This document shows positions 27,529 to 60,179 of a stretch of DNA of 64,000 nucleotides, in pieces (position 1 is the first letter of the stretch; every line of letters begins with the position of its first letter). Made by a program: the position numbers and the translations under genes. Under the pieces are notes generated by a model that saw nothing but the letters and a program-made list of their open reading frames with translations, did not search any database and was not told the DNA's origin. The stretch lies in the IMG/VR virus record IMGVR_UViG_3300005329_000001; one strand, written 5' to 3'. Source of the DNA: a virus. Taxonomy: Duplodnaviria > Heunggongvirae > Uroviricota > Caudoviricetes.

Positions 27529-27548
27529 AGAGAGGAAGAATCCTCTCT
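27529..27548 (-). terminator. hairpin terminator with TTTAGC tail
   Basis: agagagga-ttctt-cctctct, just 3' of gene ending 27555. Confidence 0.4.
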
Positions 27549-27554
27549 AGAAGC

Positions 27555-28115
27555 TCACGCAGCGGCGTGAACTGGGGTGGCGGGGAAGATCTTGGAGTTG
27601 AATTGGAACTGCGTGGCGGTCTCTTCATCGAGGAAGAGCTCAGGATGGCGTCGTACTTCTCTCTCGATCTTCTCGAACTCGTAGGCTACAGCCTTCGTCA
27701 GGAGCCCCACGTCGTGATAGAGCGGGCCGCCCTGTACCATGAAGACGTGCTCCTTCGCCTCGTTCCAGTAGACGAGCCCAGCGTAGGCGCTCACGATGCG
27801 ATTGAACCGCTGCATGGCGTCACGGAAGCGGGCGTGTGACTCCGCTGTTTCGTCGACCGACGGGGTGTAGAAGTCGACGGCTTCTCGCATCAGCGAGTGC
27901 GAGGCCCGTCGGGCCAGGACGAAGGTGAGATGCATCAGAGCTCGCCTGAGGAGCTCTCCGCGCCGCTGCTCGAGCCCTTCCGACTTCGGGGCCCGCACGA
28001 TGTTGCCGATCGCCTCGAGCACTAGGTACACGACGCCACTGCTTTGGTGCTTCTGCACGAGCTCCAGCGCCAGCTCGAGGGTTTCCTCGATGCTCCCCTT
28101 GTTCACCAATTCCAT
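27555..28115 (-). CDS. hypothetical protein
   Basis: internal ATG (MELVNKG) preceded by strong SD aaggaggtcagg; track ORF extends to 28190. Confidence 0.5.
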   Translation of the reverse strand: MELVNKGSIEETLELALELVQKHQSSGVVYLVLEAIGNIVRAPKSEGLEQRRGELLRRALMHLTFVLARRASHSLMREAVDFYTPSVDETAESHARFRDAMQRFNRIVSAYAGLVYWNEAKEHVFMVQGGPLYHDVGLLTKAVAYEFEKIEREVRRHPELFLDEETATQFQFNSKIFPATPVHAAA

Positions 28116-28191
28116 CCTGACCTCCTTTCCTTCCCCATACTTTGCCCGCGCCGCCACCGGAGGGTAGTTGCTCTGCAGTAGCGTCCGCATC

Positions 28192-28515
28192 CTACGACCC
28201 CGTCAGCTTGTCACGAGCTGCCTGCGCCTTGGTATGTAGAGCGACCATCGTCGCTGCCAAGACCCCGCCATCTGCTTCGATGAGCTCCATGGCCTTCGTC
28301 ATGACTTGCATTTGGCCCGAGACCAGGTTGTCGTTGAACATGGACGGAACGACGATCTCGTCCGTCTTCACTTCGTAGATGCTCAGAGTCCACGATTTGT
28401 CCTGCGGCAGCTTCGACACTTCCAACCGAACCAGCTTGAGGTTGAGCGTGTACTTCTCTTCGTGCAACACTGATGACTTCTTGCTCCGAACCCAGTGGTC
28501 CATCTGATCCTCCAA
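28192..28515 (-). CDS. hypothetical protein
   Basis: 107-aa ORF, SD ttggaggatcag; motif GGGGATAAGTAC 40 nt upstream. Confidence 0.5.
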   Translation of the reverse strand: MEDQMDHWVRSKKSSVLHEEKYTLNLKLVRLEVSKLPQDKSWTLSIYEVKTDEIVVPSMFNDNLVSGQMQVMTKAMELIEADGGVLAATMVALHTKAQAARDKLTGS

Positions 28516-28545
28516 AAGAGCGTGCCTTACGCTCTACTCTGTACT

Positions 28546-28555
28546 TATCCCCGAG
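28546..28555 (-). promoter_or_regulatory. GGGGATAAGT motif upstream of 28192..28515
   Basis: unit homologous to 36075..36131 (hairpin-CTTTAGCCATC...CCTCGG-motif). Confidence 0.35.
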
Positions 28556-28582
28556 GAGGACCGTGGGTTGATGGCTAAAGAG

Positions 28583-28603
28583 AGGGGGCAAGCCACACCC
28601 CCT
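28583..28603 (-). terminator. hairpin terminator with CTTTAGCC tail
   Basis: agggggca-agccacac-cccct; 3' of gene ending 28612. Confidence 0.4.
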
Positions 28604-28611
28604 CTGCCTCT

Positions 28612-28959
28612 CTAGCCTGACGAGGCCTTCTTGTGAGAACTAGAAGGCGTATCGTTGATCATGGCTGGAATGGCCTCAGAAGATTCCTGAGCTGTCTGAT
28701 TTCCCTGATGGTCTCCCATGACGGCGCTGATCTTGACGTGAATGGGTGGCTTGATATACCCAAGCCCACCCAAGACCAGCGTCACTTGCTGACCGAGAAT
28801 TGCCGGCGGCCAACCGTGCTCGGCTGTAGATGGCGTGCGAAGCAGCGTCGCTTCCTTAAGGTCGTTGTCGTACTCTTCGGTGGTCTCTGCCTCCACTACG
28901 ATCAGTACTTTGCCCATCGTCGTTTCTCCGCTCCTACGGGGTGTACTCCCAAACGTCAT
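28612..28959 (-). CDS. hypothetical protein
   Basis: 115-aa ORF; start ambiguous (28959 or ATG 28917 MGKVLIVV). Confidence 0.45.
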   Translation of the reverse strand: MTFGSTPRRSGETTMGKVLIVVEAETTEEYDNDLKEATLLRTPSTAEHGWPPAILGQQVTLVLGGLGYIKPPIHVKISAVMGDHQGNQTAQESSEAIPAMINDTPSSSHKKASSG

Positions 28960-29025
28960 TCCGACATCACTCGCCCCCTCCTCCCTTTAGAAGCAAGCGA
29001 AACTTCCGCTTGCTTCTACATACTC

Positions 29026-29448
29026 TTATCTCTCCTCTTCACTCGTCGGTTGCTGGCGGGCTTTGATGCAGCCAGGACAGTCGACCACTCGGGGGGAATG
29101 AATCCGAAGCTTCGACGATGGTGCCCCATGGAATCGGATGCTGCACTGGAGAACACCGGACTGCCTCCTGGTCGTGTAGTCATACTCGTGCTCCTTGACC
29201 TCGTGGTGGTGACCCCGAAGCCGAATCACTATGACTCGGTTTGGGGGAAGGTTCTTCAGTATCGCCCTCTCTAGGTCCCCTCCAACGGCTCTCCAATCTC
29301 TCGCGATGGCTTGAGCGTCTTGCCTCCAAGCTTCTTCATCGGAGAGTGGTGAATTAGACCGTCGATGGAGCACCTTCCGGTACGTTGACCGAGACGGAGC
29401 GAAACAGTCACCCAACCACGCCAGGAATTGCCCGATTCTCCTCAGCAT
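29026..29448 (-). CDS. hypothetical protein
   Basis: 140-aa ORF. Confidence 0.45.
   Translation of the reverse strand: MLRRIGQFLAWLGDCFAPSRSTYRKVLHRRSNSPLSDEEAWRQDAQAIARDWRAVGGDLERAILKNLPPNRVIVIRLRGHHHEVKEHEYDYTTRRQSGVLQCSIRFHGAPSSKLRIHSPRVVDCPGCIKARQQPTSEEER
29034..29045 (-). promoter_or_regulatory. GAGAGATAAGAG motif upstream of 28612..28959
   Basis: followed by 10-bp stem hairpin gaagcaagcg/cgcttgcttc. Confidence 0.35.
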
Positions 29449-29456
29449 CTAAACTC

Positions 29457-29855
29457 CTATGCCTTGATGATGGTAGCGGCCCTTTCAGCCCGACGTTTCT
29501 TTTCCTTCACAGCGAAGTGCGTGTACTCGGTGAGTTCCTTCATGCTGGGCTTGCCGTTGTAGAACTCGACTAGCTTCGGCCTACCCGATTGACGGGTTCT
29601 CTCCTTCCCACTGAATTCGAAGACCATCGTATAGACCGCACTTCTGACGTAAGCGAACATCGCATGGTACTCAAGCCCGTGAATGCAGAAACTCCCTCGG
29701 TAGCGGGTGTGACGCTCTTTCCAAGTCTTCAGAAGCTCCTTCTTCATTTGAGTCTTGGAAGGTCGTCGCAGGGGCTCGTGCGTTATTTCAATCGTGGGGC
29801 CGTAAAACTCCAGTTTGACGCCTTCCACGAGTCCCTGGAGAAACGCATTCAACAT
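29457..29855 (-). CDS. hypothetical protein
   Basis: 132-aa ORF, SD gggagggagag upstream. Confidence 0.5.
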   Translation of the reverse strand: MLNAFLQGLVEGVKLEFYGPTIEITHEPLRRPSKTQMKKELLKTWKERHTRYRGSFCIHGLEYHAMFAYVRSAVYTMVFEFSGKERTRQSGRPKLVEFYNGKPSMKELTEYTHFAVKEKKRRAERAATIIKA

Positions 29856-29946
29856 GTTCTCTCCCTCCCCTTCCTAAATAGTTCCTCACGATGGTGTGCT
29901 CTGCTGCCTCGTCGCCTTGGCCGCCTCAATCGCTTAGAGCTATATT

Positions 29947-29957
29947 TCTTATCTCCG
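29947..29957 (-). promoter_or_regulatory. GGAGATAAGAA motif upstream of 29457..29855
   Basis: 6 nt after terminator tail CTTAGCT. Confidence 0.35.
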
Positions 29958-29965
29958 AAATAGCT

Positions 29966-29988
29966 AAGAAGAGGCCGAGCCTCTTCTT
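29966..29988 (-). terminator. hairpin terminator with CTTAGCT tail
   Basis: aagaagaggc-cga-gcctcttctt; 3' of gene ending 29995. Confidence 0.45.
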
Positions 29989-29994
29989 GGTGCT

Positions 29995-30189
29995 TTAGAT
30001 CTTCGAAAGCTCCTCGACGAAGTCCTCGACCGCCTTGATGTAGCCTTGGCGATCGGGGTCTTCCGGCAGCGTGTTGCTTGCACGACGGAGCATACTGCCG
30101 GCGAGGAGCTGCATGGTCTGGCCGAGAGTCGGGTTGAGCTGGCGGAGCTTCTCACGAACTTCCTCGAGGCGCTGACTGTCCGTCTTCAT
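29995..30189 (-). CDS. small hypothetical protein
   Basis: 64-aa ORF, SD aaggagaatcag; motif TGAGATAAGAAAG upstream; terminator hairpin directly downstream. Confidence 0.5.
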   Translation of the reverse strand: MKTDSQRLEEVREKLRQLNPTLGQTMQLLAGSMLRRASNTLPEDPDRQGYIKAVEDFVEELSKI

Positions 30190-30227
30190 CTGATTCTCCT
30201 TATAAAGACGATGTGTTTCCGTCTTAC

Positions 30228-30239
30228 TTTCTTATCTCA
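30228..30239 (-). promoter_or_regulatory. TGAGATAAGAAA motif upstream of 29995..30189
   Basis: 30 nt upstream of SD. Confidence 0.35.
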
Positions 30240-30995: not shown

Positions 30996-31003
30996 GACTC
31001 CCC

Positions 31004-31270: not shown

Positions 31271-31278
31271 GTCAGCTC

Positions 31279-31590: not shown

Positions 31591-31609
31591 GAAGTTTTCC
31601 TCCTGTATT

Positions 31610-31620
31610 CTCTTATCTCC
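31610..31620 (-). promoter_or_regulatory. GGAGATAAGAG motif upstream of 31279..31590
   Basis: TTAGCTgttcGGAGATAAGAGaatacAGGAGG..ATG. Confidence 0.4.
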
Positions 31621-31630
31621 GAACAGCTAA

Positions 31631-31651
31631 GAAGAGGCGCAAGGCCTCTCC
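31631..31651 (-). terminator. hairpin terminator with CTTAGCT tail
   Basis: gaagaggc-gcaa-ggcctctcc; 3' of gene ending 31656. Confidence 0.45.
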
Positions 31652-31655
31652 TGTC

Positions 31656-32269: not shown

Positions 32270-32270
32270 G

Positions 32271-32624
32271 TCACACCGTGAACCGGAGCTTGCGCTCGAC
32301 GATGGCTTCGCACTCTCTCGTTTCCACATCGATGGCGATCTTCTTGACCCGATAGGGCTGATCGCTCTTGTCCTGCTCGCTGGCCAGGAGATCGAGGAGA
32401 TTGCCGACGCCCACTGTCAGTGCACTCCCGTTGGCCTTCTCGAGCGCCTGGTTCGTGAGGGTGATGGCCACCGTCTTCTCCTTCAACGCCAGGATGGAGT
32501 CGATGGTGGCCCAAGTGCGGTTGAACTTCTTGCACAGCCCGGTCTTGTTCATGCCCTGGGCCGCAGCTTCGAGAACCTTCTTGCGCTCCGTATCCGTCAC
32601 TGCTCGACGCGTTCGACCGGCCAT
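32271..32624 (-). CDS. helix-turn-helix DNA-binding protein
   Basis: MAGRTRRAVTDTERKKVLEAAAQGMNKTGLCKKFNRTWATIDSIL resembles resolvase/IS-type HTH; SD aggaggacatca. Confidence 0.5.
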   Translation of the reverse strand: MAGRTRRAVTDTERKKVLEAAAQGMNKTGLCKKFNRTWATIDSILALKEKTVAITLTNQALEKANGSALTVGVGNLLDLLASEQDKSDQPYRVKKIAIDVETRECEAIVERKLRFTV

Positions 32625-32693
32625 TGATGTCCTCCTGATTTTCCTAAAGACGAGGTCATTCCCAGAATGGGAATGTGCCTTATGCACGTCTAG

Positions 32694-32705
32694 TTCTTAT
32701 CCCCG
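32694..32705 (-). promoter_or_regulatory. GGGGATAAGAAC motif upstream of 32271..32624
   Basis: 70 nt upstream of ATG. Confidence 0.35.
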
Positions 32706-32872
32706 AGGAGAAGAAGCGGTTGCGACGGACAGCTAAGAGAAGGCCGAGGCCTTCCCAGAGTCCTACTCGAAGCGGTTCTTGAGTCGGCAGATCAGCTCTC
32801 CGACAAAGGCATGCAAATAGGGGAGGAGGATGATTGTGGAGATGAAAGCGAGCACCAATCTCCAAGTAGGCG

Positions 32873-33300: not shown

Positions 33301-33310
33301 CTCTTATCTC
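33301..33310 (-). promoter_or_regulatory. GAGATAAGAG motif upstream of 32873..33229
   Basis: followed by SD ggaagggagc. Confidence 0.4.
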
Positions 33311-33323
33311 ACTGAAAACTAAA

Positions 33324-33342
33324 AAGAGGCACGAGGCCTCTT
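33324..33342 (-). terminator. hairpin terminator with TTTTTAGTTTT tail
   Basis: aagaggc-acga-ggcctctt; 3' of gene ending 33349. Confidence 0.5.
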
Positions 33343-34022: not shown

Positions 34023-34033
34023 TCTTATCTCCG
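34023..34033 (-). promoter_or_regulatory. GGAGATAAGAG motif upstream of 33637..34007
   Basis: followed by SD gaaggagg. Confidence 0.4.
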
Positions 34034-34248
34034 ATATCTAAGAAATGTGGCCTTTGCAGGCCAGAGCCCCAGTGCAACGACCGACCCCATTGCGAGGTCG
34101 AGCTGCTGGTTCCGTCGTCGCTGCTTCATAAGAACACCTCTTCCATTGACTGCGGACAGCGGGCGGATCATCTCTCCGTTCAGGGGGTTGGGGGGAGATG
34201 AAGAAATGATCCGCCTCGCTGTCACAGTTCTTATACCGCGCGGGGCCT

Positions 34249-35004: not shown

Positions 35005-35015
35005 GCTTATCTCCG
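35005..35015 (-). promoter_or_regulatory. GGAGATAAGCT motif upstream of lipoprotein gene 34521..34970
   Basis: ~40 nt upstream of ATG. Confidence 0.35.
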
Positions 35016-35519: not shown

Positions 35520-35750
35520 TCAGGTTGCGGGACCACCCAACGCCTTGTCGAACGAGGCGACTTCTCGCCGCAGCTCGACAATGTGGCCGGTCAACTCGGT
35601 CAGCTCGATCCCCATGTTCTTGATGTCCTGCCTTCTCCGCCGTTCGGAAACCGCGAAGGTGATTCCGGCGCCGGCGACGACACCAGTAACAACAGCCAGC
35701 GTCATCGAAGCTGCAGCGGACATCCCCAAAAGCGTCGCCTTCTTCCACAT
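35520..35750 (-). CDS. small single-TM protein, paralog family member 2
   Basis: MWKKATLLGMSAAASMTLAVVTGVVAGAGITFAV...; 76 aa. Confidence 0.55.
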   Translation of the reverse strand: MWKKATLLGMSAAASMTLAVVTGVVAGAGITFAVSERRRRQDIKNMGIELTELTGHIVELRREVASFDKALGGPAT

Positions 35751-35988: not shown

Positions 35989-36074
35989 CAGAACATCGGC
36001 GCATGGCCGTCGAGAAGCTTGCCGATCACCTTCACGAGAATCCGTTCAAAGAAATGCCTCATATTCACCTCCAT

Positions 36075-36086
36075 GTTCTTATCTCC
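36075..36086 (-). promoter_or_regulatory. GGAGATAAGAAC motif upstream of 35800..35988 and its leader ORF
   Basis: followed by atggaggtgaatATG. Confidence 0.4.
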
Positions 36087-36148
36087 GAGGAGGTGGCCCA
36101 GATGGCTAAAGAGAGGCCTCCAGCGCCTCTCCCAGCCCCGTATGGGAG

Positions 36149-36428: not shown

Positions 36429-36674
36429 CTATATTCTTCTCATTTCCATTCTCAGTGCCGCGACCTCGCGCTCAAGCAAATCCAGCCGGTGAGCACTTCG
36501 GAGACCGTGATCGAGTGCTTGGGCGATCAGGTTGTTTGCCAAGTCACTGTCAGTCTCCTTCTTCCTCTTTACGAAGATAGCGTCCGCGAAGCTGGCGCCG
36601 ACGATGATACCACCGACGATTGAGAGAGTGATGCTGGCACCGGCGGACATCCCAAGCACCATCAATTTCATCAA
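36429..36674 (-). CDS. small single-TM protein, paralog family member 3
   Basis: MMKLMVLGMSAGASITLSIVGGIIVGASFADA...; 81 aa. Confidence 0.55.
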   Translation of the reverse strand: MMKLMVLGMSAGASITLSIVGGIIVGASFADAIFVKRKKETDSDLANNLIAQALDHGLRSAHRLDLLEREVAALRMEMRRI

Positions 36675-36908
36675 TTCCTCCCCTGTTTAATCGGCATCCT
36701 GACGCTGATGAAGTCCGGCATCGGGCCACCCGCCAACTGCGCCTCAATCTCTTTCGCGATCTTTTCCGCCAAGCTGTCATAGAACGTCTTCTTGGGCTTG
36801 GGGCGAGAGACGGTTTCCCAGATGCCCGCGCCGATCAAAACGCCTGCCACAAGAGCCATTGTGGCGGTCGCGCATGCCGAGAGTCCGAGAGCAGAGATCT
36901 TGAGCATA
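36671..36908 (-). CDS. small single-TM protein, paralog family member 4
   Basis: MLKISALGLSACATATMALVAGVLIGAGIWE...; ATG with SD cagggagaac (alt start 36949). Confidence 0.5.
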
Positions 36909-36952: not shown

Positions 36953-36963
36953 CTCTTATCCCC
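36953..36963 (-). promoter_or_regulatory. GGGGATAAGAG motif upstream of 36671..36908
   Basis: 17 nt after CTTAGCT terminator tail. Confidence 0.35.
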
Positions 36964-36985
36964 GATCTCTCTCGCTGACAGCTAA

Positions 36986-37036
36986 GAAGAGGGGAGGGCA
37001 CATCTGGCAGATGCGACCAGTGCCTCCCTCCCCTTT
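36986..37036. terminator. long bidirectional hairpin terminator
   Basis: aagaggggagggcac...gtgcctccctcccctttt; T-tract on + side, CTTAGCT on - side. Confidence 0.5.
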
Positions 37037-37362: not shown

Positions 37363-37373
37363 TTCTTATACCC
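37363..37373 (-). promoter_or_regulatory. GGGTATAAGAA variant motif upstream of 37076..37273
   Basis: variant with T for G; similar variant GTATAAGAAGG at 9139..9149 upstream of + gene 9175. Confidence 0.3.
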
Positions 37374-38224: not shown

Positions 38225-38238
38225 CTCTTATCTCTGAG
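38225..38238 (-). promoter_or_regulatory. CAGAGATAAGAGAG motif upstream of 37979..38221
   Basis: abuts ggaggtgacc ATG. Confidence 0.4.
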
Positions 38239-39500: not shown

Positions 39501-39869
39501 AGCTCTTATCCCAGAGGCCCCAGGGCTTCTCCCAACCGGGCGCGCAGAAGGTCAGCAGTGGAGAGATAGGACAGACTCACCCCATTACACTGAGTAGATC
39601 GACCGCAACCAACAATCCTAACAGCCCTCGTCTCCGGCTAGCTCCCCAGGCGATAGCCTGGAGCTATCCCGCTGTAAGCCGATAAGCCCTACTCTGCAAA
39701 GTATGCGAAATTCCTTGCATTCTCCACCCCCGAAGTTACCAGGCAGGTGATGGTCTGTGACAATCCCAGCCTCTGTTGTCTCCCTACGGCCCTATAAGCC
39801 GGCTATGAGCTATCCAGCTACTAGACGAGGACTTGTGTTAGCCTCGATTGCGCCCCCTAAGGAGACCCA
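39501..39869. promoter_or_regulatory. 369-bp divergent non-coding control region between leftward and rightward early blocks (candidate divergent promoters/operators/origin)
   Basis: no ORF; palindromes CCAGGCgataGCCTGG, AGCCGGCT; direct repeats TAAGCCGATAAGCCC, AGCTATCC x2. Confidence 0.5.
39504..39513 (-). promoter_or_regulatory. GGGATAAGAG motif: first leftward promoter-like element at edge of divergent control region
   Basis: followed by SD gaggaggtg. Confidence 0.4.
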
Positions 39870-40229: not shown

Positions 40230-40254
40230 TCGCTAGACCTAAAACAAAGGGGAG

Positions 40255-40400
40255 CCAGACGGAAAACAGGGGGGACAGTGTGAACCTAGACCAGTGTCCC
40301 CAGTTTTTTTCTACCCCGTAGAGAGCGCGAAAGAGTGAACCTAGTCCAGTGGGTGGGGATTTTTTCAGGGGGCTGATAGCGCGAGAAGGGCGTCAATTTT
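40255..40400 (+). repeat. two 17-bp direct repeats GTGAACCTAG(A/T)CCAGTG each followed by a T-tract; tandem terminator-like elements
   Basis: ggggacagtgtgaacctagaccagtgtcccc+T7; gagtgaacctagtccagtgggtgggg+T6; third T7 tract at 40385. Confidence 0.45.
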
Positions 40401-40418
40401 TTTCCTGGAGGACTAGCG

Positions 40419-40877
40419 ATGAGTGCAGTGCAGGAGTTTGGTGAGCTCTACAAGCGGTGGTACAGCACTGCTTCTGACTCAGAAGACAAAGACGAGCTGG
40501 GAGATCAGGTGGAGAGGGCCTGGGCGCTGCTGAGCTGGGAAGATCGGTTCAGGGCTGATCAGTACCGAGGGCTCTGCACCTGGAGTCCTCCTAGGCGTGA
40601 TACTGACAGCATCCTGCTTCCTGTCGCGCCGCGGGTCAGGTACGAGGATAAGCGGTGGTTGCGGCTCAACTGGAGCGCAGAGACTGGTGTCTTCAAGGCG
40701 TTGTGGAAGAACGAGCCGATTCAGGGCGTGGTTGGTGCTGGGGTCTTCTTCGGGCTTGTTGGCGGGGAGTGCGTTCTGAAGTTCGATCGTCTTCCTGATA
40801 TGGCGACCGCTGATGAGCTGCTTCGCGCTGGATTCGGCATCAGCGTACCGAAGGGCCTCATCAAGCAGGTGGCCTGA
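40419..40877 (+). CDS. hypothetical protein
   Basis: 152-aa ORF, SD ggaggactagcg. Confidence 0.5.
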   Translation: MSAVQEFGELYKRWYSTASDSEDKDELGDQVERAWALLSWEDRFRADQYRGLCTWSPPRRDTDSILLPVAPRVRYEDKRWLRLNWSAETGVFKALWKNEPIQGVVGAGVFFGLVGGECVLKFDRLPDMATADELLRAGFGISVPKGLIKQVA

Positions 40878-40903
40878 ATTTTTTTTTCTGGAGGAGAAGA
40901 CGC

Positions 40904-41687: not shown

Positions 41688-41700
41688 GGGGATAAGAGCC
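41688..41700 (+). promoter_or_regulatory. GGGGATAAGAGCC motif upstream of 41706..41960
   Basis: followed by ggaggtgacg ATG. Confidence 0.4.
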
Positions 41701-41960: not shown

Positions 41961-41965
41961 CCTGA

Positions 41966-41996
41966 TAGCTAAGAAGAGGGACGTCCCTCTTCTTTT
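41966..41996. terminator. bidirectional terminator between convergent genes
   Basis: agaagagggacgtccctcttct; TTTTATT on + side, CTTAGCT on - side. Confidence 0.6.
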
Positions 41997-41998
41997 TA

Positions 41999-42637
41999 TT
42001 ACTCCTCTGCGGTGAGCGGGGTGCTCACGATCGGCTCTGGGTCGAACTCCCTTGTTGGCAGATCGCGCATCAGGAGATCGAGCGTGATCACCTTCCTGCC
42101 TTCTGTCTTGATGATCACCTCCATGATTCGGCGCAGTCGATGGCTGCGCTCGCTGGACCCCCACTTCTTCCGCAGCTCGGCGAATCTGGAGCTCTGGTAG
42201 TCGCGCATGCACTCGAAGAACCACTCGATCTGATCGAGTTCGTCGGCGCTGAAGAGGTCGAGCCCTTCGATATACCTGATCATCGTCTTCCGCTCGCCGT
42301 ACTCGTATTCGCCCGTTGCGAACTCTGAGCACGTGATCTTGTTGAGCCGCTCCACAGCCGCCACGAACAGCGAGCCGATGCCGCAGACGCGGCACGAGGG
42401 CATCGCCTTCAGGCGGTCGCGGATCTGGCAATCGGACTGCCAGAAATTTTCGGCGAGCGGGTGGAAGTAGGTGCTCTCGGCGAGCATGCGCCGGTTGACG
42501 AGCTGTAGCAGCACGTCCTTCGCCAGCATGACACGCCTGGTGGACTTGTCCGCGGCTTCGAACCTGGCGTTCGTTTCCTCAATGCGGCGGCTGATGGCGT
42601 CGAGAACCTTCTTCTCGTCTTCCTCGGAGAGATACAT
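41999..42637 (-). CDS. hypothetical protein, paralog A of a duplicated leftward gene
   Basis: internal ATG MYLSEEDEK with SD caggaggaaattcc and motif GGAGATAAGAG; ~30% identical to 44863..45492 (RVMLAxDVLLQL, CxVCxIGSLFxAAVERLxKI, EVIIxTEG). Confidence 0.55.
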   Translation of the reverse strand: MYLSEEDEKKVLDAISRRIEETNARFEAADKSTRRVMLAKDVLLQLVNRRMLAESTYFHPLAENFWQSDCQIRDRLKAMPSCRVCGIGSLFVAAVERLNKITCSEFATGEYEYGERKTMIRYIEGLDLFSADELDQIEWFFECMRDYQSSRFAELRKKWGSSERSHRLRRIMEVIIKTEGRKVITLDLLMRDLPTREFDPEPIVSTPLTAEE

Positions 42638-42656: not shown

Positions 42657-42698
42657 CTCTTATCTCCTGGCCTGAAATTTTTTCTTGGGATTTTCTGG
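42657..42698. promoter_or_regulatory. divergent control region: GGAGATAAGAG (for 41999..42637) plus shared T-rich element AAATTTTTTCTTGGGATTTTCTGG
   Basis: same architecture repeated at 45511..45558. Confidence 0.4.
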
Positions 42699-43740: not shown

Positions 43741-43753
43741 GGAGATAAGAAGG
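43741..43753 (+). promoter_or_regulatory. GGAGATAAGAAGG motif upstream of 43766..44098
   Basis: followed by ggaggtgacac ATG. Confidence 0.4.
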
Positions 43754-44719: not shown

Positions 44720-44805
44720 TCGACTTCGCCATCTTCCTCTGGAGCTGCCTGCTCTGGGCGAACCCGCTGTACATCGTCTATAGACTCCTACGTGACAAAT
44801 GAACT

Positions 44806-44852
44806 GGAGAGCCTTCGGGCTCTTCTTAGCTAAAAAGAGGGGAGTGGGCCCC
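44806..44852. terminator. two tandem hairpins (bidirectional terminator) between convergent genes
   Basis: gagagcc-ttcg-ggctcttc then TTAGCT then aagaggggagtgggcccctctt. Confidence 0.5.
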
Positions 44853-44862
44853 TCTTGTGCTT

Positions 44863-45492
44863 CTAGTCGCGCGAGTCGTACAGATCCTGGCCCTCTTCCG
44901 GCAGCGGAAGCTCTTTGGCGAGGAGCTCGAGCGTCATCTTCACCTTGCCCTCGGTTGCGATGATCACCTCGGCCGACCGCTTCATGCGATTGTACTTGGT
45001 GACGTCCTCCCACCCCATCGCGTCGTAGAGTGGGTGGTCGAGGAACGGGCTATTGAGCTCGAAGAAATCCTCGAGGATCTCCAATTCCTCCTCCGAGAAG
45101 AGCTCGAGTCGGGCGAGGTATTCGACCATCTTCCCTCTGACCCTGGAAGAGGAGAGGACGGTGTCCACGGCGATTTTGTCGAGCCTCTCGACGGCGGAGA
45201 TGAACAGCGAACCGATGTTGCACACGTGGCAGGCGGGAGCCACGCGCAGCGCGTCTCGGAGATCTTTGCCGATGTGGTTCTCGATGAAGTTGAACGGGCT
45301 GCAGTAGGCGAGTCCATCGATGATGGGGCTGTAGTAGTTGCTCGCCGGGTGGAACTTCTCGAGCTTGAGTTGCAGCAGAACGTCCTGCGCGAGCATGACT
45401 CGCTTGGTGGGCGGATCGGCCGACAAGAATTTTTCGTTGGTTTCCTCGAGGCGTTTGTAGTACTCGGCGAATTTCTGTTCATTGGAAAGCAT
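44863..45492 (-). CDS. hypothetical protein, paralog B of duplicated leftward gene
   Basis: internal ATG MLSNEQKF with SD cggaggttcaca and motif GCGGAGATAAGG. Confidence 0.55.
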   Translation of the reverse strand: MLSNEQKFAEYYKRLEETNEKFLSADPPTKRVMLAQDVLLQLKLEKFHPASNYYSPIIDGLAYCSPFNFIENHIGKDLRDALRVAPACHVCNIGSLFISAVERLDKIAVDTVLSSSRVRGKMVEYLARLELFSEEELEILEDFFELNSPFLDHPLYDAMGWEDVTKYNRMKRSAEVIIATEGKVKMTLELLAKELPLPEEGQDLYDSRD

Positions 45493-45510: not shown

Positions 45511-45558
45511 CCTTATCTCCGCGAAGAGATTTTTCTTGGGATCTTGTGATAAGAGTAT
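45511..45558. promoter_or_regulatory. divergent control region: GGAGATAAGG (for 44863..45492), T-rich ATTTTTCTTGGGATCTT, GTGATAAGAGTAT (for 45587..46036)
   Basis: paralogous to 42657..42698 region. Confidence 0.4.
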
Positions 45559-47683: not shown

Positions 47684-47741
47684 AAATCCTACCTGGAGAG
47701 CTCTCGCTCTCCTTAGCTTTTGGAGTAGACTGAGATCCGAC

Positions 47742-50224: not shown

Positions 50225-50228
50225 TGGC

Positions 50229-50253
50229 TAAAAAGAGGGCGCTGTCGCCCTCT
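50229..50253. terminator. bidirectional terminator between convergent genes
   Basis: aaagagggcg-ctgt-cgccctctt flanked by gctaaaa / agctatt. Confidence 0.55.
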
Positions 50254-50259
50254 TAGCTA

Positions 50260-50811
50260 TTACTTCTTCCTGCGCTTCTCGTCGAACGCCGGCGGCAGAG
50301 CCAGAGCCTTCTGCACATCATTCAGGCGCTTCAGGTTCGGAGAGACCGTCGTTTCGAACCAGGCCTTGAGTGGCTTGTTCTCGGCGGTGTTGGGAATCTC
50401 AGATGTGTTGACCAGAGCGGCTGTCTGCTGCAAGCCGGCGGCAGCGCGATCGAAGGTCTTCTTCCGCTCGATGAGTCGACCCTTGAGAACGTCGAGGCTG
50501 CCGGTGGTTGCCCGCACTCCGATGCCGGAGAGGTTCTCAAGCTCGCGCCCGTACGATTCGATGAGGTACTTGCGAGCTCGTGAGGCTGTCTTGCGGATGA
50601 GCTGGGTGCTCTGGCTGTTCTCCCTCGGAGTCGAAGCTAGGCCCATCACAACGCGGGTGACGAAGCCCCAGGAGTAGTACTTCTGTGGCTGGTGCTTCGC
50701 GGCCCAGTCGAGGAAATGGGCGACGCTCTTGTAGTGGGCCGTCCGCTCGTCGTCGGGGAGAGGAGAGTAGCCCTTGATGTTGTCGTGCGACTTCGCAGCA
50801 GCCATGTTCAT
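50260..50811 (-). CDS. hypothetical protein
   Basis: 183-aa ORF, SD ggaggaccta. Confidence 0.5.
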   Translation of the reverse strand: MNMAAAKSHDNIKGYSPLPDDERTAHYKSVAHFLDWAAKHQPQKYYSWGFVTRVVMGLASTPRENSQSTQLIRKTASRARKYLIESYGRELENLSGIGVRATTGSLDVLKGRLIERKKTFDRAAAGLQQTAALVNTSEIPNTAENKPLKAWFETTVSPNLKRLNDVQKALALPPAFDEKRRKK

Positions 50812-51710
50812 AGGTCCTCCAGAATTTGATAGGCCTCCACCACGCTTTCGTACATCTCTCTCGTGTCGTCGGTGCCTGACGAATCAGGATGATACTTTGC
50901 CGCGAGAGTTTTGTACTGCTTCTTCGCCTTCTTCTTGAAGTCTTCTGAGATCCTACCTCCGAGCGGTGGATCAAGATGAAGAACGTGACAGGCCTGAATG
51001 ATCTTCCCGCGATTCATGCCACGTCGCTGGCTCTCCGATGTCCGTCGCATACGGTCGAGCTTGTGCTGGTAGTGCTCGAGAATCACCCGGAGCTCGCCTT
51101 CGAACTCCCGGTACGTCTTCTCGATCACGCCGGGATCCACACCCTCGAGCCGAGCATGGAAGTAGCCGGAGATCATGCCCCTAAGGTTTGCCCAGAAGAG
51201 CTTCGGATCGTCGTCTTTGCCCGTCTCCTGAACCTCTTCCACCACGGGCGCCGGTGGAGGGGGTACGACAATCCGAGGAGGGGCACTCGGGTTGCGCTTG
51301 TGAATCACCGAGCCGTCAGGCAGAAGAGCAGCCGGGAAGGAGTCGTATTCTTCCAACGTCTTGGTGAGCGCAGCGGCTACCTCTACACCCAGCATCGAGG
51401 CCTTCTGCTTCGCCTCCCTCATCAGCTTGGTAGCCGTCCGCAGCGGCAATTTTTCATCACGGATGCGCAGCCACAGCACATCAGCGACGTCGCCGTAGCC
51501 GAGCAAGGTCGAGCGTCCTTCGATCGCGTAGGGAGTCTCCTCGAGCTCCTTGGACAGCCACTCTCGCTTGGAGAGCAGAGATCCATCGGTGCGATTGATG
51601 GTTGGAAGAGCGGCCTGCCAAATCTGACGCTCGAGAACGGCCAGCTCCTTCTCGCTCTTGCCGTCCTTGTGGTTCTTGTACAGCGCAATCAGCTTCTGGT
51701 AGTCCTCCAT
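50808..51710 (-). CDS. J-domain (DnaJ-like) co-chaperone protein
   Basis: C-terminal KKQYKTLAAKYHPDSSGTDDTREMYESVVEAYQILEDL with HPD tripeptide; SD ggagaggttgagca. Confidence 0.7.
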   Translation of the reverse strand: MEDYQKLIALYKNHKDGKSEKELAVLERQIWQAALPTINRTDGSLLSKREWLSKELEETPYAIEGRSTLLGYGDVADVLWLRIRDEKLPLRTATKLMREAKQKASMLGVEVAAALTKTLEEYDSFPAALLPDGSVIHKRNPSAPPRIVVPPPPAPVVEEVQETGKDDDPKLFWANLRGMISGYFHARLEGVDPGVIEKTYREFEGELRVILEHYQHKLDRMRRTSESQRRGMNRGKIIQACHVLHLDPPLGGRISEDFKKKAKKQYKTLAAKYHPDSSGTDDTREMYESVVEAYQILEDL

Positions 51711-52307: not shown

Positions 52308-52385
52308 TGGCGCCCCCGAATAAAGAGAAAGGTTGATCACAGAGACTTATCGCCGTCGACGCGGGGAATTTGAGCGAGAGCTAAA

Positions 52386-52406
52386 GAGAAGGCAAGAAGC
52401 CTTCTC
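52386..52406 (-). terminator. hairpin terminator with CTTTAGCT tail
   Basis: gagaaggc-aaga-agccttctc; 3' of gene ending 52415. Confidence 0.45.
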
Positions 52407-54754: not shown

Positions 54755-54762
54755 GAATCACC

Positions 54763-55358: not shown

Positions 55359-55444
55359 GTAAGATCCTCCTGTACTTTCTTATCGCCGAAAGATCTCGAA
55401 GTCTGATGAGACAAGAACTTGGAGAATTTTCTTAGGAGGCAGCG

Positions 55445-56528: not shown

Positions 56529-56529
56529 G

Positions 56530-56868: not shown

Positions 56869-56876
56869 GAGGGACC

Positions 56877-57527
56877 ATGTTCGCAATCCTCGCAGCCGCG
56901 CTCTTCTTAGCTCCGGCAAACACGATCACCGTCACTGGGACAGTGCGACACTCCATCATTGCGCCCGACGGTAAGCCGGGAAAGCCAGGAAAGAGCATCA
57001 CGAGTAGGAGCCTCACGCTGACTACTGCGGCTACGTCAGCGGACAGTCTGCTCTACAGCAATAACTGGGTCTCGAGTGGGGGCATCAGCAACTGGGGCTC
57101 ACCCGGTAGCGGAGGAGCTCTCACTCTGCAGGGAGGCTCAGCAGGCGGTTCGTGGACGTACGCAGCCGACGGCGACAAAAGGATTGGTCAAGTCACTTTC
57201 GGCAGTGCCCGTGGAGGTGATGTCACTATTGGAGGCGGTGCTGGTAACCCTCCTGGGGGTATACATCTCAAGACAGACCACATTGATCGCGTGTGGCTCG
57301 ATTCGGATGGAGTGCTTCACTACAATGGTTCGGAAGTGGCGACGATCGAGAACATCGATGTCCGCTTCCGTCGAGCATTGTGGCTCATCTTCTTCTCCGG
57401 CCTCAATGGCATCATTGTTGGTGGATGCATCTTGTGGTTGTGGAAGAACCAGCTCTACGGGCGATGGCTCGCCAAGCAGGTGAGCGCAGACGAGGGGCCG
57501 TACCGATCTAGTGGCAACCCAAAGTGA
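56877..57527 (+). CDS. secreted/membrane Gly-rich protein (N-terminal signal, C-terminal TM)
   Basis: ATG MFAILAAALFLAPA with SD ggagggacc; GGxGG repeats; C-terminal LWLIFFSGLNGIIVGGCILWLW. Confidence 0.5.
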   Translation: MFAILAAALFLAPANTITVTGTVRHSIIAPDGKPGKPGKSITSRSLTLTTAATSADSLLYSNNWVSSGGISNWGSPGSGGALTLQGGSAGGSWTYAADGDKRIGQVTFGSARGGDVTIGGGAGNPPGGIHLKTDHIDRVWLDSDGVLHYNGSEVATIENIDVRFRRALWLIFFSGLNGIIVGGCILWLWKNQLYGRWLAKQVSADEGPYRSSGNPK

Positions 57528-57769
57528 GCTGGGCAATACGCTACGAGGGGACCAACGAGTTCCTGAAGGCCTGGACATCGAGGACAAGAATCGGCGACCG
57601 ACATCCTGCCTTCGTGTACGCAACTAAGAAAGAGGCACAGGCGAAGATCGATAGCATGTATCACCACGCCAAGGCCGGCTTCTCATTTCTCCCTGTCGAG
57701 GTCGACCTTCCAGTTCGGGACAAATTCGAGTTCCACAACTTCAAAAGGGGGAAGAGAGGGGCGCGCTGA
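57524..57769 (+). CDS. small hypothetical protein
   Basis: 81-aa ORF. Confidence 0.45.
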   Translation: MSWAIRYEGTNEFLKAWTSRTRIGDRHPAFVYATKKEAQAKIDSMYHHAKAGFSFLPVEVDLPVRDKFEFHNFKRGKRGAR

Positions 57770-57888
57770 TGCTACCAAAGTGGTTACAATCAGGGATCCC
57801 GTTCTCTGGTCGGGTATCCGACTTCATCAAGTTCATCGTCGTCGTTCCTATCGCAGGACTAGCGAGGCTGTTTCGGCCGAGGTGAGTC

Positions 57889-58557
57889 GTGAAGGTCATC
57901 TTTCTGGACATCGACGGCGTTCTCAACACGAACAAGAACTACGAAGAGTACGCCAGGGCGCAGCGCGAGGACCCGGAGCAGAACCCGGAGGTGCAGGGAC
58001 GGATTGACATCATCCACCGCCACGTCCACCTGCTCTTCGACGAGATCTGCATCACCAACCTGAACTCCATCATCCGCTCGACGGGAGCGAAGATCGTCAT
58101 CAGCTCGTCGTGGAGGCACTTCTACGACGACGCCAAGGGCAGGCCAAAGTTCGGCGACCTGGTCGAGCTACTGAAGCGTGTCGGCATGATAGGGGAGGTC
58201 ATCGGCAAGACACCAACCAACCTGCCGAGGAGGATGTCGGAGTCGGTGCCCCGAGGAAAGGAGATCAAGCGCTGGCTCGATGAGAATCCGGGCGTCGAGG
58301 CCTTCGTCATCCTCGACGACACGGCTGATATGGCCTCGCTGCGCCACAAGCTGGTGCGGACCAGCGCACGAATCGGGCTCTCGCTCAGGGACATCGACAA
58401 GGCGCTGCGCCATCTCGGTATCGCTCGTCTCTCGGCAAGGAAGATGCACCTCCAAGAGGCAGAGGTGCGACATGCCGAAGCAGTCCGAAGACAAGCTCTA
58501 CGAAGAGGCAAAGCGTCAGGAAGCAATGGCGAAGAAACTGGACCCGACGCCGCGTGA
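57889..58557 (+). CDS. HAD-superfamily phosphatase (polynucleotide 3'-phosphatase-like)
   Basis: N-terminal MKVIFLDIDGVLNT (DxDGT/V motif I), later ISSSWR and VILDDT motifs; GTG start. Confidence 0.6.
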   Translation: MKVIFLDIDGVLNTNKNYEEYARAQREDPEQNPEVQGRIDIIHRHVHLLFDEICITNLNSIIRSTGAKIVISSSWRHFYDDAKGRPKFGDLVELLKRVGMIGEVIGKTPTNLPRRMSESVPRGKEIKRWLDENPGVEAFVILDDTADMASLRHKLVRTSARIGLSLRDIDKALRHLGIARLSARKMHLQEAEVRHAEAVRRQALRRGKASGSNGEETGPDAA

Positions 58558-58618
58558 GGAAGCGAAGAAGCCTGAAGCGATGGCCTTCCTCGAGTACGCC
58601 ATCAAGCCCCAGCAGTAA
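58473..58618 (+). CDS. small Lys/Glu-rich ORF
   Basis: ATG MPKQSEDK inside track ORF 58280..58618; overlaps HAD gene 3' end. Confidence 0.2.
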
Positions 58619-58628
58619 GCTAAGAAAA

Positions 58629-58646
58629 GGGGCAGCTCTCTGCCCC
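58629..58646 (-). terminator. hairpin terminator with TTTTCTTAGCT tail
   Basis: ggggcag-ctct-ctgcccc; 3' of gene ending 58653. Confidence 0.5.
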
Positions 58647-58652
58647 GATTCT

Positions 58653-58958
58653 CTACTGCACCTTGAGCGCTCCTGTGGCGAATTCCATCGGGTTCGAGGG
58701 AGCGACCCAGGTGTACGCGATGCCGCTGCGAGCCCAGTTGGACTCGGCAGCGAAGGTTCGTAGGCCAAGCTCTAGCTGTAGTGTGCGGTCGAGAAGCTTC
58801 TTGTTCTCCATGCGGAGATCGTCCAACTGACTGCGGGATACTGCCAGCCCGTTCGTGGCCGTAGCCAGTTGCTGCTTGAGGCTTTCGATCTCACTGGTCG
58901 CGCCGACGTCGTCGGTCAGCGACAACTTTCCTCTCCCCTTCTCGTCTTCGTTTGCCAT
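58653..58958 (-). CDS. coiled-coil hypothetical protein
   Basis: 101-aa ORF; terminator with TTTTCTTAGCT tail directly downstream. Confidence 0.5.
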   Translation of the reverse strand: MANEDEKGRGKLSLTDDVGATSEIESLKQQLATATNGLAVSRSQLDDLRMENKKLLDRTLQLELGLRTFAAESNWARSGIAYTWVAPSNPMEFATGALKVQ

Positions 58959-59208
58959 CTCCGAGAACCCTCCTCAACAGCGAGTTGAGACCGACATTCT
59001 GTAGCTCCATCATCAGCCGATTGGTGCAGTATGCTTGCTGGCGCATCACGAGTGCTTCTGATGAGTGCGCCTGAGAGCCACCGATTACGTACGTACCGGG
59101 CATGGACTCGAAGCAGATTTCACACAGGTATTTGTCCCCGCGGAGCTCCACGTTCCAGTGCCCGGTGCAGTTCAAGCAGACCGATCCGTCGTCTCTCTTT
59201 GCTGGCAT
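58891..59208 (-). CDS. Cys-rich zinc-ribbon protein
   Basis: ATG MPAKRDD; CLNC...CEIC; overlaps 58653..58958 by 68 nt. Confidence 0.4.
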   Translation of the reverse strand: MPAKRDDGSVCLNCTGHWNVELRGDKYLCEICFESMPGTYVIGGSQAHSSEALVMRQQAYCTNRLMMELQNVGLNSLLRRVLGDGKRRREGERKVVADRRRRRDQ

Positions 59209-59335
59209 CATTCCCCCTGTCAAAGAAAGTAGTTTCCCCACAGATTCTTATCTCTTCTGCGGAAGAAATTCTCCAGGCAGGGATAAGAGCTGGAAGAAGT
59301 TACTTTCAACCCCTGTTCAGTTCGAGAGGCCAACC

Positions 59336-59953
59336 ATGATCATCCTTCTGCTGTTTCTGAACTTCGCGATTTCTTGGTTCAACTCGTGGTCGGTAGGGAA
59401 ATCCTGGGCGGAGACGAAGCACATCGGAGGACTCCCGCGCTTCATGACGTGGATGGGAGCCATCATGGCGAGTGCGGGGTTCTCGTGGTGCTACCTCATC
59501 GTCCTCGCCTTCATCGCCGGGCCGGATGGCTTGAATAAGCTACCGCCGAAGTACGTGCAGGCGATGTGCAACCTAGGCTACCTGGCGCTCATCATTCCAG
59601 TGATCGGGTCTGGGACCGCGATCACCATCCAATCGCTCGTGCGGGCGTGGAAGGAGCGGTCTCTGGCAAGCGGAGGCATCGCGGCGTGGAACACCTTCGC
59701 CGACGTCTACAACATCAGCCAGGCAGTCGAGCACGTTCCTGGGGCGTTCGAAGATGTCGCGGATGTGCTGTTCTCGAAGGACGACAAAGACGAGGACGAC
59801 AGTGCCGCAGCGCGTCTAGCGATCCTGCTAGTCTGCCTGGCGATCGCCGGCGGCATCATCACGGCGGCCCTCATCATCCGGTCTGTCTCGAAGAGCGCCG
59901 TGCGGGCCGCCAGGCTCGATCTCCAGGTCAGGAGGATTGCTCGGGCTTCCTAG
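59336..59953 (+). CDS. multi-pass membrane protein
   Basis: ATG MIILLLFLN with SD gagaggccaacc; at least 5 hydrophobic segments. Confidence 0.5.
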   Translation: MIILLLFLNFAISWFNSWSVGKSWAETKHIGGLPRFMTWMGAIMASAGFSWCYLIVLAFIAGPDGLNKLPPKYVQAMCNLGYLALIIPVIGSGTAITIQSLVRAWKERSLASGGIAAWNTFADVYNISQAVEHVPGAFEDVADVLFSKDDKDEDDSAAARLAILLVCLAIAGGIITAALIIRSVSKSAVRAARLDLQVRRIARAS

Positions 59954-60148
59954 CCGCCCGCCCTGGATGCGGTATCCCCTGCTCCTTCCGCCTCTTGTGG
60001 TGCCAGTGAAGGCCACACAACTGGTCATCAGCGTAGGATGCTCTTGGACGTAGGCAGCGAGAGCCAGTGTTCGCACACATCGCGGTGCAGCGCGTTTGAT
60101 CTGAAGGGGTGCGGATCCGCGGCATAGTCACATGGTAGCTAAGAAAAA

Positions 60149-60179
60149 GGCCCCAGCACATCGGGGCCGTTTTCTTTTT
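60149..60179. terminator. strong bidirectional rho-independent terminator
   Basis: ggcccc-agcacatc-ggggcc; GTTTTCTTTTT on + side, TTTTTCTTAGCT on - side. Confidence 0.7.

Follow-up and report, generated by a model that had tools for sequence, protein, structure and literature searches.

The phage window and the elements between its genes

The DNA analysed here, which we call the window, is a 64-kb stretch (58-60% GC) of the IMG/VR virus record IMGVR_UViG_3300005329_000001 and forms a portion of a large phage genome. We surveyed its proteins with our own gene model, PHROGs and Pfam. In this gene model a structural block runs rightward from about 44 to 16551, a leftward block of ~45 small genes covers 16552-39479, and beyond it, to the right, genes lie in mixed orientations. 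Window proteins match PHROGs tail and tail-fibre families, and a 1223-aa open reading frame (ORF; 9955-13626) is of tape-measure size. The elements studied here lie between the genes: ~21 gene-end hairpins, each followed by a pyrimidine run and the short sequence TTAGC(T), always in the direction of transcription, and a GATAAG element that we read as part of the promoter of the next unit. For comparison, we used ten related metagenomic phage contigs (L130, L132-L139 and L151; GC 56-65%), with marker-protein identities of 66-76% (L130, L132-L134, L137-L139), 43-49% (L135, L136) and 36% (L151, 65% GC).

Gene-end hairpins carry a TTAGC tail

The heptamer CTTAGCT is found 15 times in the window against 3.7±1.9 expected, a count reached in 0 of 100 shuffles, and in 13 of the 15 copies a hairpin with a pyrimidine-run 3' arm stands directly 5' of it. 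The pentamer TTAGC as such is rarer than expected (34 copies vs 47±7 in dinucleotide shuffles). Defining a strict hairpin as at least 6 bp with at least 3 G:C pairs and a loop of 3-8, we found one directly before 20 of these 34 copies, compared to 3.6±1.9 in shuffles (maximum 8), and behind such hairpins stood 10% of the same-composition 5-mers of the real sequence used as control. In nine relatives, TTAGC followed a hairpin in 34 of 87 cases vs 9.9% for control words (p=5e-13). Chance or base composition as the source of the motifs is thus ruled out by the shuffles and the same-composition word controls.

Folding of 19 elements gave energies from -10.9 to -23.4 kcal/mol, with z-scores mostly between -2 and -6. 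The elements lie 2 to 16 nt after a stop codon and share the orientation of the preceding gene on either strand, so that the tail, which the initial annotation had tied to the leftward strand, in fact follows gene direction. A stable, GC-containing hairpin just past the stop codon and oriented with the gene is what one looks for in an intrinsic terminator. The elements, described below as terminators in this predicted sense, are as follows; those at 16509-16547, 23201-23228, 25262-25297 and 61851-61888 lie outside 27529-60179, the part first annotated.

16509..16547, minus strand: terminator, 14-bp hairpin and TTTTTTAGCT, end of the leftward block (-23.4 kcal/mol, z -5.9)
23201..23228, minus: terminator GCCGGATCTTCTCCGGC and ATTTTCTTAGCT (fold; matching cassette kept in 8 relatives)
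25262..25297, minus: terminator, 13-bp hairpin and TTAGCT (-20.4 kcal/mol; in orthologues the stems differ and the tail is the same)
27523..27548, minus: terminator and TTTTAGCAA, whose GCAA doubles as -35 of the next promoter (hairpin, fold, relatives)
28574..28609, minus: terminator and CTTTAGCC (hairpin, fold, pairwise alignment)
29963..29988, minus: terminator AAGAAGAGGC..GCCTCTTCTT and AGCT (hairpin, fold)
31626..31652, minus: terminator and CTTAGCT (hairpin, fold)
32732..32756, minus: terminator and CTTAGCT (hairpin, fold)
33318..33342, minus: terminator, variant tail TTAGT in TTTTTAGTT (hairpin)
34037..34063, minus: terminator, variant tail TTAGA in CATTTCTTAGAT (hairpin)
36105..36133, minus: terminator and CTTTAGCC (hairpin, fold, pairwise alignment)
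36981..37030, minus: long imperfect hairpin and CTTCTTAGCT (weak z, -1.0)
41968..41994, minus: bidirectional terminator of convergent genes, TTAGCT tail on minus and TTTTTAT tail on plus (hairpin, fold)
44806..44830, plus: terminator and CTTAGCT, back to back with 44829..44856, AGCT in common (hairpin, fold)
44829..44856, minus: terminator and TTTTTAGCT (hairpin, fold)
47695..47717, plus: terminator and TTAGCTTTT (hairpin, fold)
50227..50257, both strands: single hairpin between convergent genes with a TTAGC tail on each strand (TTAGCT on plus, TTTTTAGCC on minus; hairpin, fold)
52380..52406, minus: terminator and TTTAGCT (hairpin, fold)
58619..58646, minus: terminator and TTTTCTTAGCT (hairpin, fold)
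60138..60176, minus: terminator and TTTTTCTTAGCT, with a T-rich tail on the other strand (hairpin, fold)
61851..61888, minus: weak hairpin and CTTAGCT, a doubtful member (-9.8 kcal/mol)

The stems had been described as built from AAGAGG and CCTCTT. The hairpins are real, but the exact stem is present in about a third only, and the rule that holds is a purine-only 5' arm facing a pyrimidine-only 3' arm. Likewise, of the proposed TTTT-CTTAGCT tail the heptamer stands, while TTTT precedes it in three elements only and the core is reduced to TTAGC. An intrinsic terminator is expected to have a U-rich tract of 7-9 nt directly 3' of its hairpin; the tract found here (CTCTTCTT) is pyrimidine-rich, often with just 4 to 6 T, pairs in part with the 5' arm and has AGC at its end. 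A profile over 51 instances consists of a pyrimidine run, TTAGC, T, N, T/A and Y; other positions carry hardly any information. For 57 of the 76 cases, the end of the predicted stem falls between -2 and +1 nt of TTAGC. Measured from the GC-rich upper part of the stem, the A of TTAGC is 3-10 nt away, with a mode of 6. Convergent gene pairs have either a single hairpin with a tail on each strand or two back-to-back hairpins sharing the palindrome AGCT; the bidirectional or back-to-back sites at 41961-41998, 44803-44862 and 50225-50259 bear out the initial annotation, which had several bidirectional hairpins between convergent genes. None of the 5' untranslated region (UTR) hairpins that we inspected carries TTAGC.

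We discarded several other accounts of the tail. Its TAG is not an in-frame back-up stop codon (frames are split 7/6/2), and AGCT is not unusual as a restriction or methylation word (396 observed vs 340 expected). By reasoning, an integron attC-like or REP/HUH-nuclease-like site was set aside given the unconserved stems, the lack of a G before TT and the lack of a complementary inverse core. The reverse complement GCTAAG, one mismatch from GATAAG, does not qualify as an antisense promoter, as the obligatory G at -2 is absent. A pattern scan of IMG/VR with CTTAGCT-N-GGRGATAAGA gave no lead; the contexts inspected were low-GC phages with CTTAGCT abundant inside apparent coding sequence, which is consistent with TAG recoding in those phages.

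A probable GATAAG promoter element stands upstream of the genes

Allowing at most one mismatch, GGAGATAAGAG has 13 copies in the window against 1.3±1.2 expected, and the shuffled-sequence control hence upholds this motif together with CTTAGCT. Judging from its register and context, GGAGATAAGAG is the extended -10 region of a putative sigma-70-family promoter, at which transcription would initiate. To define its parts, we made an alignment of 73 GATAAG sites from the window and the ten related loci, each with a ribosome-binding site and an ORF after it. G occupies -2 in 71 of the 73 and position -1 is A or G, while G[C/A]AA is found at -22 to -19 (A in 48/73 and 53/73), typically as TGCAA, CGCAA or AGCAA. 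A -35-like G[C/A]AA at a fixed 18-nt gap and an extended -10 G are thus in place, as in sigma-70-family promoters, where the fixed spacing is about 17 bp. The classical hexamer has A at position 2 and T at position 6; GATAAG ends in G, and only the GACAAT/GATAAT variants end in T.

The placement of the element also fits a promoter: 36 of the 41 copies of [G/T]ATAAG are intergenic (intergenic DNA is 12% of the window), and for 27 a start on the same strand follows within 90 nt. From GATAAG to the start codon there are 14-79 nt (73 sites), with a separate GGAGG in between. Divergent intergenic regions have two opposed copies (45512/45548 and 59247/59282), and behind several promoters (five on inspection) a hairpin begins near the expected transcription start. 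The predicted promoters listed for the window are:

19266..19271, minus strand: -10 GATAAG, TGA before it
23159..23164, minus: -10 GATAAG, GGAAA at -35 position
25507..25512, minus: -10 variant TATAAG, CTGCAA at -35 position
27497..27502, minus: -10 GATAAG
28544..28549, minus: -10 GATAAG
29025..29030, minus: -10 GATAAG
29948..29953, minus: -10 GATAAG, 9 nt past TTAGC
30231..30236, minus: -10 GATAAG
31612..31617, minus: -10 GATAAG, 8 nt past TTAGC
32696..32701, minus: -10 GATAAG, TCGCAA at -35 position
33303..33308, minus: -10 GATAAG
34024..34029, minus: -10 GATAAG
34230..34235, minus: -10 variant TATAAG, CCGCAA at -35 position
35006..35011, minus: -10 GATAAG
36078..36083, minus: -10 GATAAG
36955..36960, minus: -10 GATAAG
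37365..37370, minus: -10 variant TATAAG, CCGCAA at -35 position
38227..38232, minus: -10 GATAAG
39505..39510, minus: -10 GATAAG, first unit of the leftward block
41691..41696, plus: -10 GATAAG
42659..42664, minus: -10 GATAAG
43744..43749, plus: -10 GATAAG
45512..45517, minus: -10 GATAAG, divergent pair member
45548..45553, plus: -10 GATAAG, divergent pair member
52346..52351, minus: -10 GATAAG, GCTCAA at -35 position
55379..55384, minus: -10 GATAAG
59247..59252, minus: -10 GATAAG, divergent pair member
59282..59287, plus: -10 GATAAG, divergent pair member

At the two TATAAG sites 34230-34235 and 37365-37370, both with a perfect CCGCAA, the next called gene is 224 and 94 nt away, respectively; these putative promoters may drive small uncalled ORFs or non-coding RNAs. 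Matching cassettes of relatives have the hexamer variants TATAAG and GACAAT/GATAAT. The latter stand 6-8 nt before an ATG, with no ribosome-binding site, in L132 (8011-8096), L133 (7993-8073), L137 (7896-7979) and L139 (7477-7559), at the gene after a 50-55 aa ORF (the window counterpart lies near 25285), and this arrangement suggests a leaderless mRNA. Within 40230-40903, three rightward genes have another repeated signal, TTTTTTTC(C)TGGAGGA, joined to their ribosome-binding site; this region also has the direct repeat GTGAACCTAG(A/T)CCAGTG, and the hairpins inspected there have plain T-runs at their ends and lack TTAGC.

TTAGC belongs to the hairpin and not to the promoter

Eleven hairpin-TTAG units of the leftward block have GATAAG 7-36 nt downstream, the succession of hairpin, tail and promoter element that the initial annotation had reported. 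As a name for the layout, its terminator-promoter cassette is fair: a gene-end hairpin with its pyrimidine tract abuts a promoter whose parts are in fixed register. One could argue that TTAGC is then simply the -35 element of the next promoter. We rejected this, since TTAGC is also present at convergent gene ends, its distance to GATAAG varies from 7 to 49 nt, and the true -35-like sequence is GCAA at a fixed distance. At least nine gene ends have TTAGC and no GATAAG downstream. The distances cluster at 20-25 nt, where the terminator abuts the -35 element, and in the TTAGCAA cases the GC is common to TTAGC and the GCAA of the promoter. Because it is found at promoterless convergent gene ends and its spacing to GATAAG is variable, TTAGC is part of the terminator.

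The order is reversed at one locus:

24618..24631, minus strand: GATAAG-CTC-TTAGC and then a hairpin, conserved in relatives

This reversed order, GATAAG-N3-TTAGC-hairpin, is kept in the orthologues of L130, L132, L133, L134 and L139.

Both motifs are kept where the surrounding sequence diverges

Relatives share a common order of parts: stop codon, hairpin, Y-run, TTAGC, GCAA-N15-GGR-GATAAG, an optional hairpin, GGAGG and ATG. At matching positions the stems differ in sequence and pairing is kept through compensating substitutions. Most relatives retain TTAGC and GATAAG there, and a variant or a loss turns up occasionally. The orthologues of the element at 16509-16547 in L132, L133, L134 and L137, for example, retain TTTTTAGCTC. 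The proteins that flank matching cassettes are only 25-75% identical and gene order is collinear. Between strains 98% identical (window 17555-37991 vs L123), intergenic differences amount to 0.48% vs 2.1% in coding DNA, about fourfold fewer, and there is no difference in any hairpin, TTAGC or GATAAG. The motifs are kept where stems and neighbouring proteins diverge, and therefore both are signals under selection; recent copying of a mobile cassette does not explain them. Avoidance of TTAGC or GATAAG in coding DNA, which might have been a sign of autonomous activity, proved uninformative because all NNTAA words are depleted.

Interpretation of the hairpin-TTAGC element

The account that we favour, with a little more than even confidence, is that hairpin-TTAGC would work as an intrinsic or NusA/NusG-assisted terminator, after which comes the sigma-70-family promoter of the next unit. 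Each short transcription unit would end with a hairpin of purine 5' arm and pyrimidine 3' arm (CCTCTTCTT type), with AGC(T) immediately after it. A pyrimidine-only RNA tract (CUCUUCUU) would make a weak hybrid with the template, in place of a plain U-tract, and TTAGC would be the 3' boundary of this tract, where RNA polymerase pauses and releases. The promoter of the next unit would lie directly downstream, made of the (T)GCAA -35-like sequence, the 18-nt gap, the near-invariant G at -2 and the -10 GATAAG (variants TATAAG, GACAAT), and transcription would start ~7 nt past the -10, often into a 5' hairpin, before reaching the GGAGG ribosome-binding site and the ATG. Hairpins, gene-end position and orientation, motif statistics, promoter register and the conservation of both motifs are read directly from the DNA, and it is from these that we infer actual termination and initiation at the sites. 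The weakest step in the explanation is to place TTAGC in termination itself and not in subsequent RNA processing; as to its function, our best guess is a signal for pausing or release at the end of the U-tract.

Several points weigh against termination followed by initiation. The distance between the upper stem and the A of TTAGC (3-10 nt) is loose for a signal acting at a fixed point of the RNA:DNA hybrid. With the full hairpin formed, the 8 nt that follow (AGCUNUYN) lack U-richness. Plain T-runs and no TTAGC are found at about a third of the terminators of the family. The -10 hexamer ends in G instead of the near-universal T. Finally, the conserved reversed locus, where TTAGC comes 3 nt after GATAAG and before the hairpin, is left unexplained by a terminator role.

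More tentatively, TTAGC might serve as a dedicated punctuation mark that one particular factor recognises, such as a nuclease or a sigma or elongation factor that the phage encodes or that is specific to a lineage, and a deep uncultured family of tRNA-rich soil phages would have preserved it alongside the GCAA-N15-GGR-GATAAG promoter. If so, this would be a sequence-specific transcript-end signal for a multisubunit RNA polymerase, of which we know of no described counterpart among bacterial intrinsic terminators. TTAGC is a real and conserved part of the gene-end signal.

The main rival of a termination signal is an RNA cleavage site, which we regard as rather unlikely. An endonuclease specific for single strands, either phage-encoded or similar to RNase E or RNase Y, would cut read-through transcripts at UUAG↓CU beside the hairpin, leaving the upstream mRNA with a protective 3' hairpin and the downstream piece with a 5' monophosphate, and the hairpins might or might not terminate too. 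TTAGC abuts the hairpin base and AGC is the first unpaired stretch in most cases, and a nuclease would tolerate the loose spacing to the GC-rich stem more readily than would a signal tied to the hybrid position. At the reversed conserved locus, TTAGC lies just 5' of the hairpin, so that cleavage there would give a 5'-protected product. The phage also carries genes of RNA metabolism (NUDIX, HAD_SAK_2). In mycobacteria, RNase E cleaves single-stranded RNA at RN↓CNU, predominantly within UTRs and intergenic regions (PMC10641625), and AG↓CU fits the RN↓CN part of this motif; the U at +3, however, is present in only 9 of the 51 instances, the U being at +4 instead. Natural variants lack the C (TTAGT, TTAGA), and the coding sense strand shows no specific avoidance of TTAGC (4 observed vs 7.5 expected, like TTAGA/G/T).

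It was also proposed initially that the units are duplicated or mobile cassettes rather than independent terminators. In its most concrete form they would be recombination linkers that shuffle small genes, as the promoter-early stem-loop (PeSL) units of phages RB49 and phi1, spread by duplication. The layout is alike, with stem-loop, promoter and ribosome-binding site flanking small genes of unknown function (PMC2839356). The two units singled out as homologous do align (28504-28611 with 35989-36148), with a local score of 30 (null mean 9, maximum 15), but the pair 29856/31591 scores much the same (31), and the shared bases, 30-35 nt in either pair, are the functional motifs. The paralogues 41999-42637 and 44863-45492 have similar promoter regions, and L139 has an extra 158-aa gene exactly between TTAGC and GATAAG of one cassette. 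Against this, identity between copies is confined to short motifs while spacers, stems and loops vary; cassettes occupy matching positions in collinear relatives; TTAGC is found at convergent gene ends without promoters; and the motifs outlast the divergence of all surrounding sequence, which points to selection on function rather than recent copying. Because at most ~30 bases match, confined to motifs, and positions are conserved, we consider mobility an improbable cause of the likeness, and the elements look like independent sites under a common constraint.

Less probable still, and in our opinion very unlikely, is that TTAGC(T) serves as the DNA site of a small phage protein, such as the HTH_38-like product of 32271-32624, that would block or modulate RNA polymerase at gene ends in the manner of a stoperator. 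The motif is oriented with transcription at unit boundaries and the small helix-turn-helix protein is conserved in the family, but the 5-6 conserved positions are too few for a typical operator of 13-14 bp, the tight spacing is to the hairpin base and not to the promoter, and the non-palindromic motif has no second half-site.

A nut-like site, with the hairpin as boxB and CUCUUUAGC as boxA loading an antitermination complex, is scarcely credible: CUCUUUAGC and CCCUCUUAGC do resemble what we take to be the boxA sequences of E. coli rrn (GCUCUUUAAC) and lambda (CGCUCUUA), but the element comes ahead of promoters, just past stop codons, and also at convergent gene ends, its boxA-like part is base-paired within the stem, and more than 20 copies per 45 kb are unlike nut-site usage. 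Because the element precedes the promoters and stands outside their transcripts, the antitermination role suggested in the initial annotation is unlikely.

The phage and its neighbouring genes

A comparison with INPHARED gave no match to the window at the DNA or protein level, while soil and rhizosphere metagenomes hold near-identical contigs, the longest seen being 139 kb. On this 139-kb contig, positions 1-7151 of L140 (about 2.7-9.9 kb past window position 64000) hold an array of 36 tRNA genes with HNH endonuclease genes interspersed, covering all 20 amino-acid specificities minus Cys and Trp; Rfam and tRNA scans of the 64-kb window itself found nothing. We read the source of the window as a ~139-kb tRNA-rich soil phage whose non-structural genes are split among many short transcription units. 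The phage is a member of a broad uncultured family, because its MoxR-type AAA_5 ATPase (22138-23118) has more than 120 homologues, many of them on contigs of 100-212 kb. In the search for a host, no relative of this ATPase was found in 185,579 reference genomes, and a scan with the terminator pattern gave only 9 scattered matches, from which no host was identified. Neither a sigma factor nor a phage RNA polymerase gene was seen in the ~84 kb of genome surveyed.

Some words are missing from the whole window: CAGCTG (0 observed vs 22-25 expected) and TCCGGA (0 vs 11-14), while GTGCAC is scarce (2 vs 14.7). This looks like restriction-site avoidance and could help to identify the host. Some of the cargo is unusual: a protein with a ribosomal L7/L12 C-terminal domain (3784-4554), a receiver-only response-regulator protein (18162-18521), a DnaJ-domain protein (50808-51710), a HAD_SAK_2 RNA-repair-type domain (57889-58557) and a NUDIX hydrolase (62643-63275). 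The small helix-turn-helix protein at 32271-32624 (minus strand), related to proteins annotated as HTH_38/HTH_23 (L132 620-961, L133 37-369, L137 2900-3232), is a candidate family-wide transcription regulator. Paralogous genes are found at 41999-42637 and 44863-45492, and also at 25302-25454, 35520-35750, 36429-36671 and 36671-36907. The first pair is 39% identical and has in common a ATCCCAAGAAAAA motif upstream of the GATAAG promoter, a sign of local duplication of gene and promoter together.

Significance

If TTAGC has a function in forming 3' ends or in termination, bacterial or phage transcript ends would here be defined by a fixed sequence and not by structure and U-richness alone, which is rare, and the units would offer terminator-promoter parts that are compact and well insulated. 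With a -10 ending in G and a geometry like that of sigma-28 promoters, the promoter consensus provides a route to the matching sigma factor and thence to the host of a large uncultured soil phage family. Besides, regulatory signals can be read from metagenomic phage contigs by setting matching intergenic regions of relatives side by side.

Comparison with known systems

Nut sites lie in the transcript downstream of their promoter, while the element described here precedes promoters. The stoperator of Cluster A mycobacteriophages is an asymmetric repressor site of 13-14 bp; here only TTAGC(T) is informative and the flanks carry little information. The class II termination signal of T7 RNA polymerase, ATCTGTT followed by a U-run, acts independently of a hairpin on a single-subunit polymerase. 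It shares with our element the use of a short fixed sequence as part of a termination signal and differs in needing no hairpin, and no phage polymerase was seen here.

Regarding the promoter, sigma-28 (FliA/SigD) recognises TAAA-N15-GCCGATAA. The geometry is identical: counted from GATAA, positions -22 to -19 hold a 4-mer whose last two bases are AA, and after 15 nt come a G-rich triplet and GATAA itself; the CGA core, however, is not kept (-1 is A or G in 64 of the 73 sites and C in 5), and the -35 is GCAA and not TAAA. The SAS/ESAS of Cluster K mycobacteriophages contain the asymmetric repeat GGGATAGGAGCCC in 11-19 copies, in the non-structural half only (Pope et al. 2011, PMC3203893). GGGATAGGAGCCC matches GGGATAAGAG at 9 of 10 positions, and these repeats are likewise oriented with the genes, often with inverted repeats before them. 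The SAS, however, is a 13-bp repeat that includes the Shine-Dalgarno core and stands 3-7 bp before the start codon. We read the phage motif as a promoter and not as an SAS because it lies 12-90 nt upstream, has a separate GGAGG and is accompanied by a -35-like element at a fixed distance.

Regarding the terminator, NusG-dependent terminators of B. subtilis have weak A-U/G-U basal pairs, TTNTTT in the non-template strand and interruptions in the distal U-tract (Mandell et al. 2021, PMC8060035). The likeness extends to the GC-rich hairpin after the stop codon, the weak basal pairs, the TTNTT-type tract and the non-U distal part, and CTTCTT-AGC resembles such a tract. The fixed pentamer at the end of the tract is a feature of this phage that sets it apart from intrinsic terminators. 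To our knowledge, based on a literature search that was not exhaustive, no terminator class with a fixed pentamer tail has been described.

The closest known analogue of the whole unit is the PeSL cassette of the T4-type phages RB49 and phi1 (Arbiol et al. 2010, PMC2839356), and a terminator-promoter layout is ordinary for phages. Both systems belong to the non-structural part of large phage genomes of lytic type, where dozens of intergenic units of stem-loop, promoter and ribosome-binding site stand among small genes of unknown function, and in both the units insulate short transcription units. The stem-loop and promoter share one intergenic unit upstream of such genes here as well. PeSL promoters, in contrast, belong to the classical sigma-70 early type and have AT-rich DNA upstream, and the position of the stem-loop within them varies, while in the cassettes examined here the hairpin is upstream of the promoter, carries the fixed TTAGC tail and is joined to a GCAA-N15-GGR-GATAAG promoter. 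PeSLs are conserved over ~100 bp, a length sufficient for homologous recombination, and are thought to be recombination linkers; our best pairs share 30-31 matched nt, within the motifs. Set against these systems, the intrinsic terminator, the sigma-70-family promoter and the PeSL-like organisation are of known kinds, and what is unusual is the fixed TTAGC tail.

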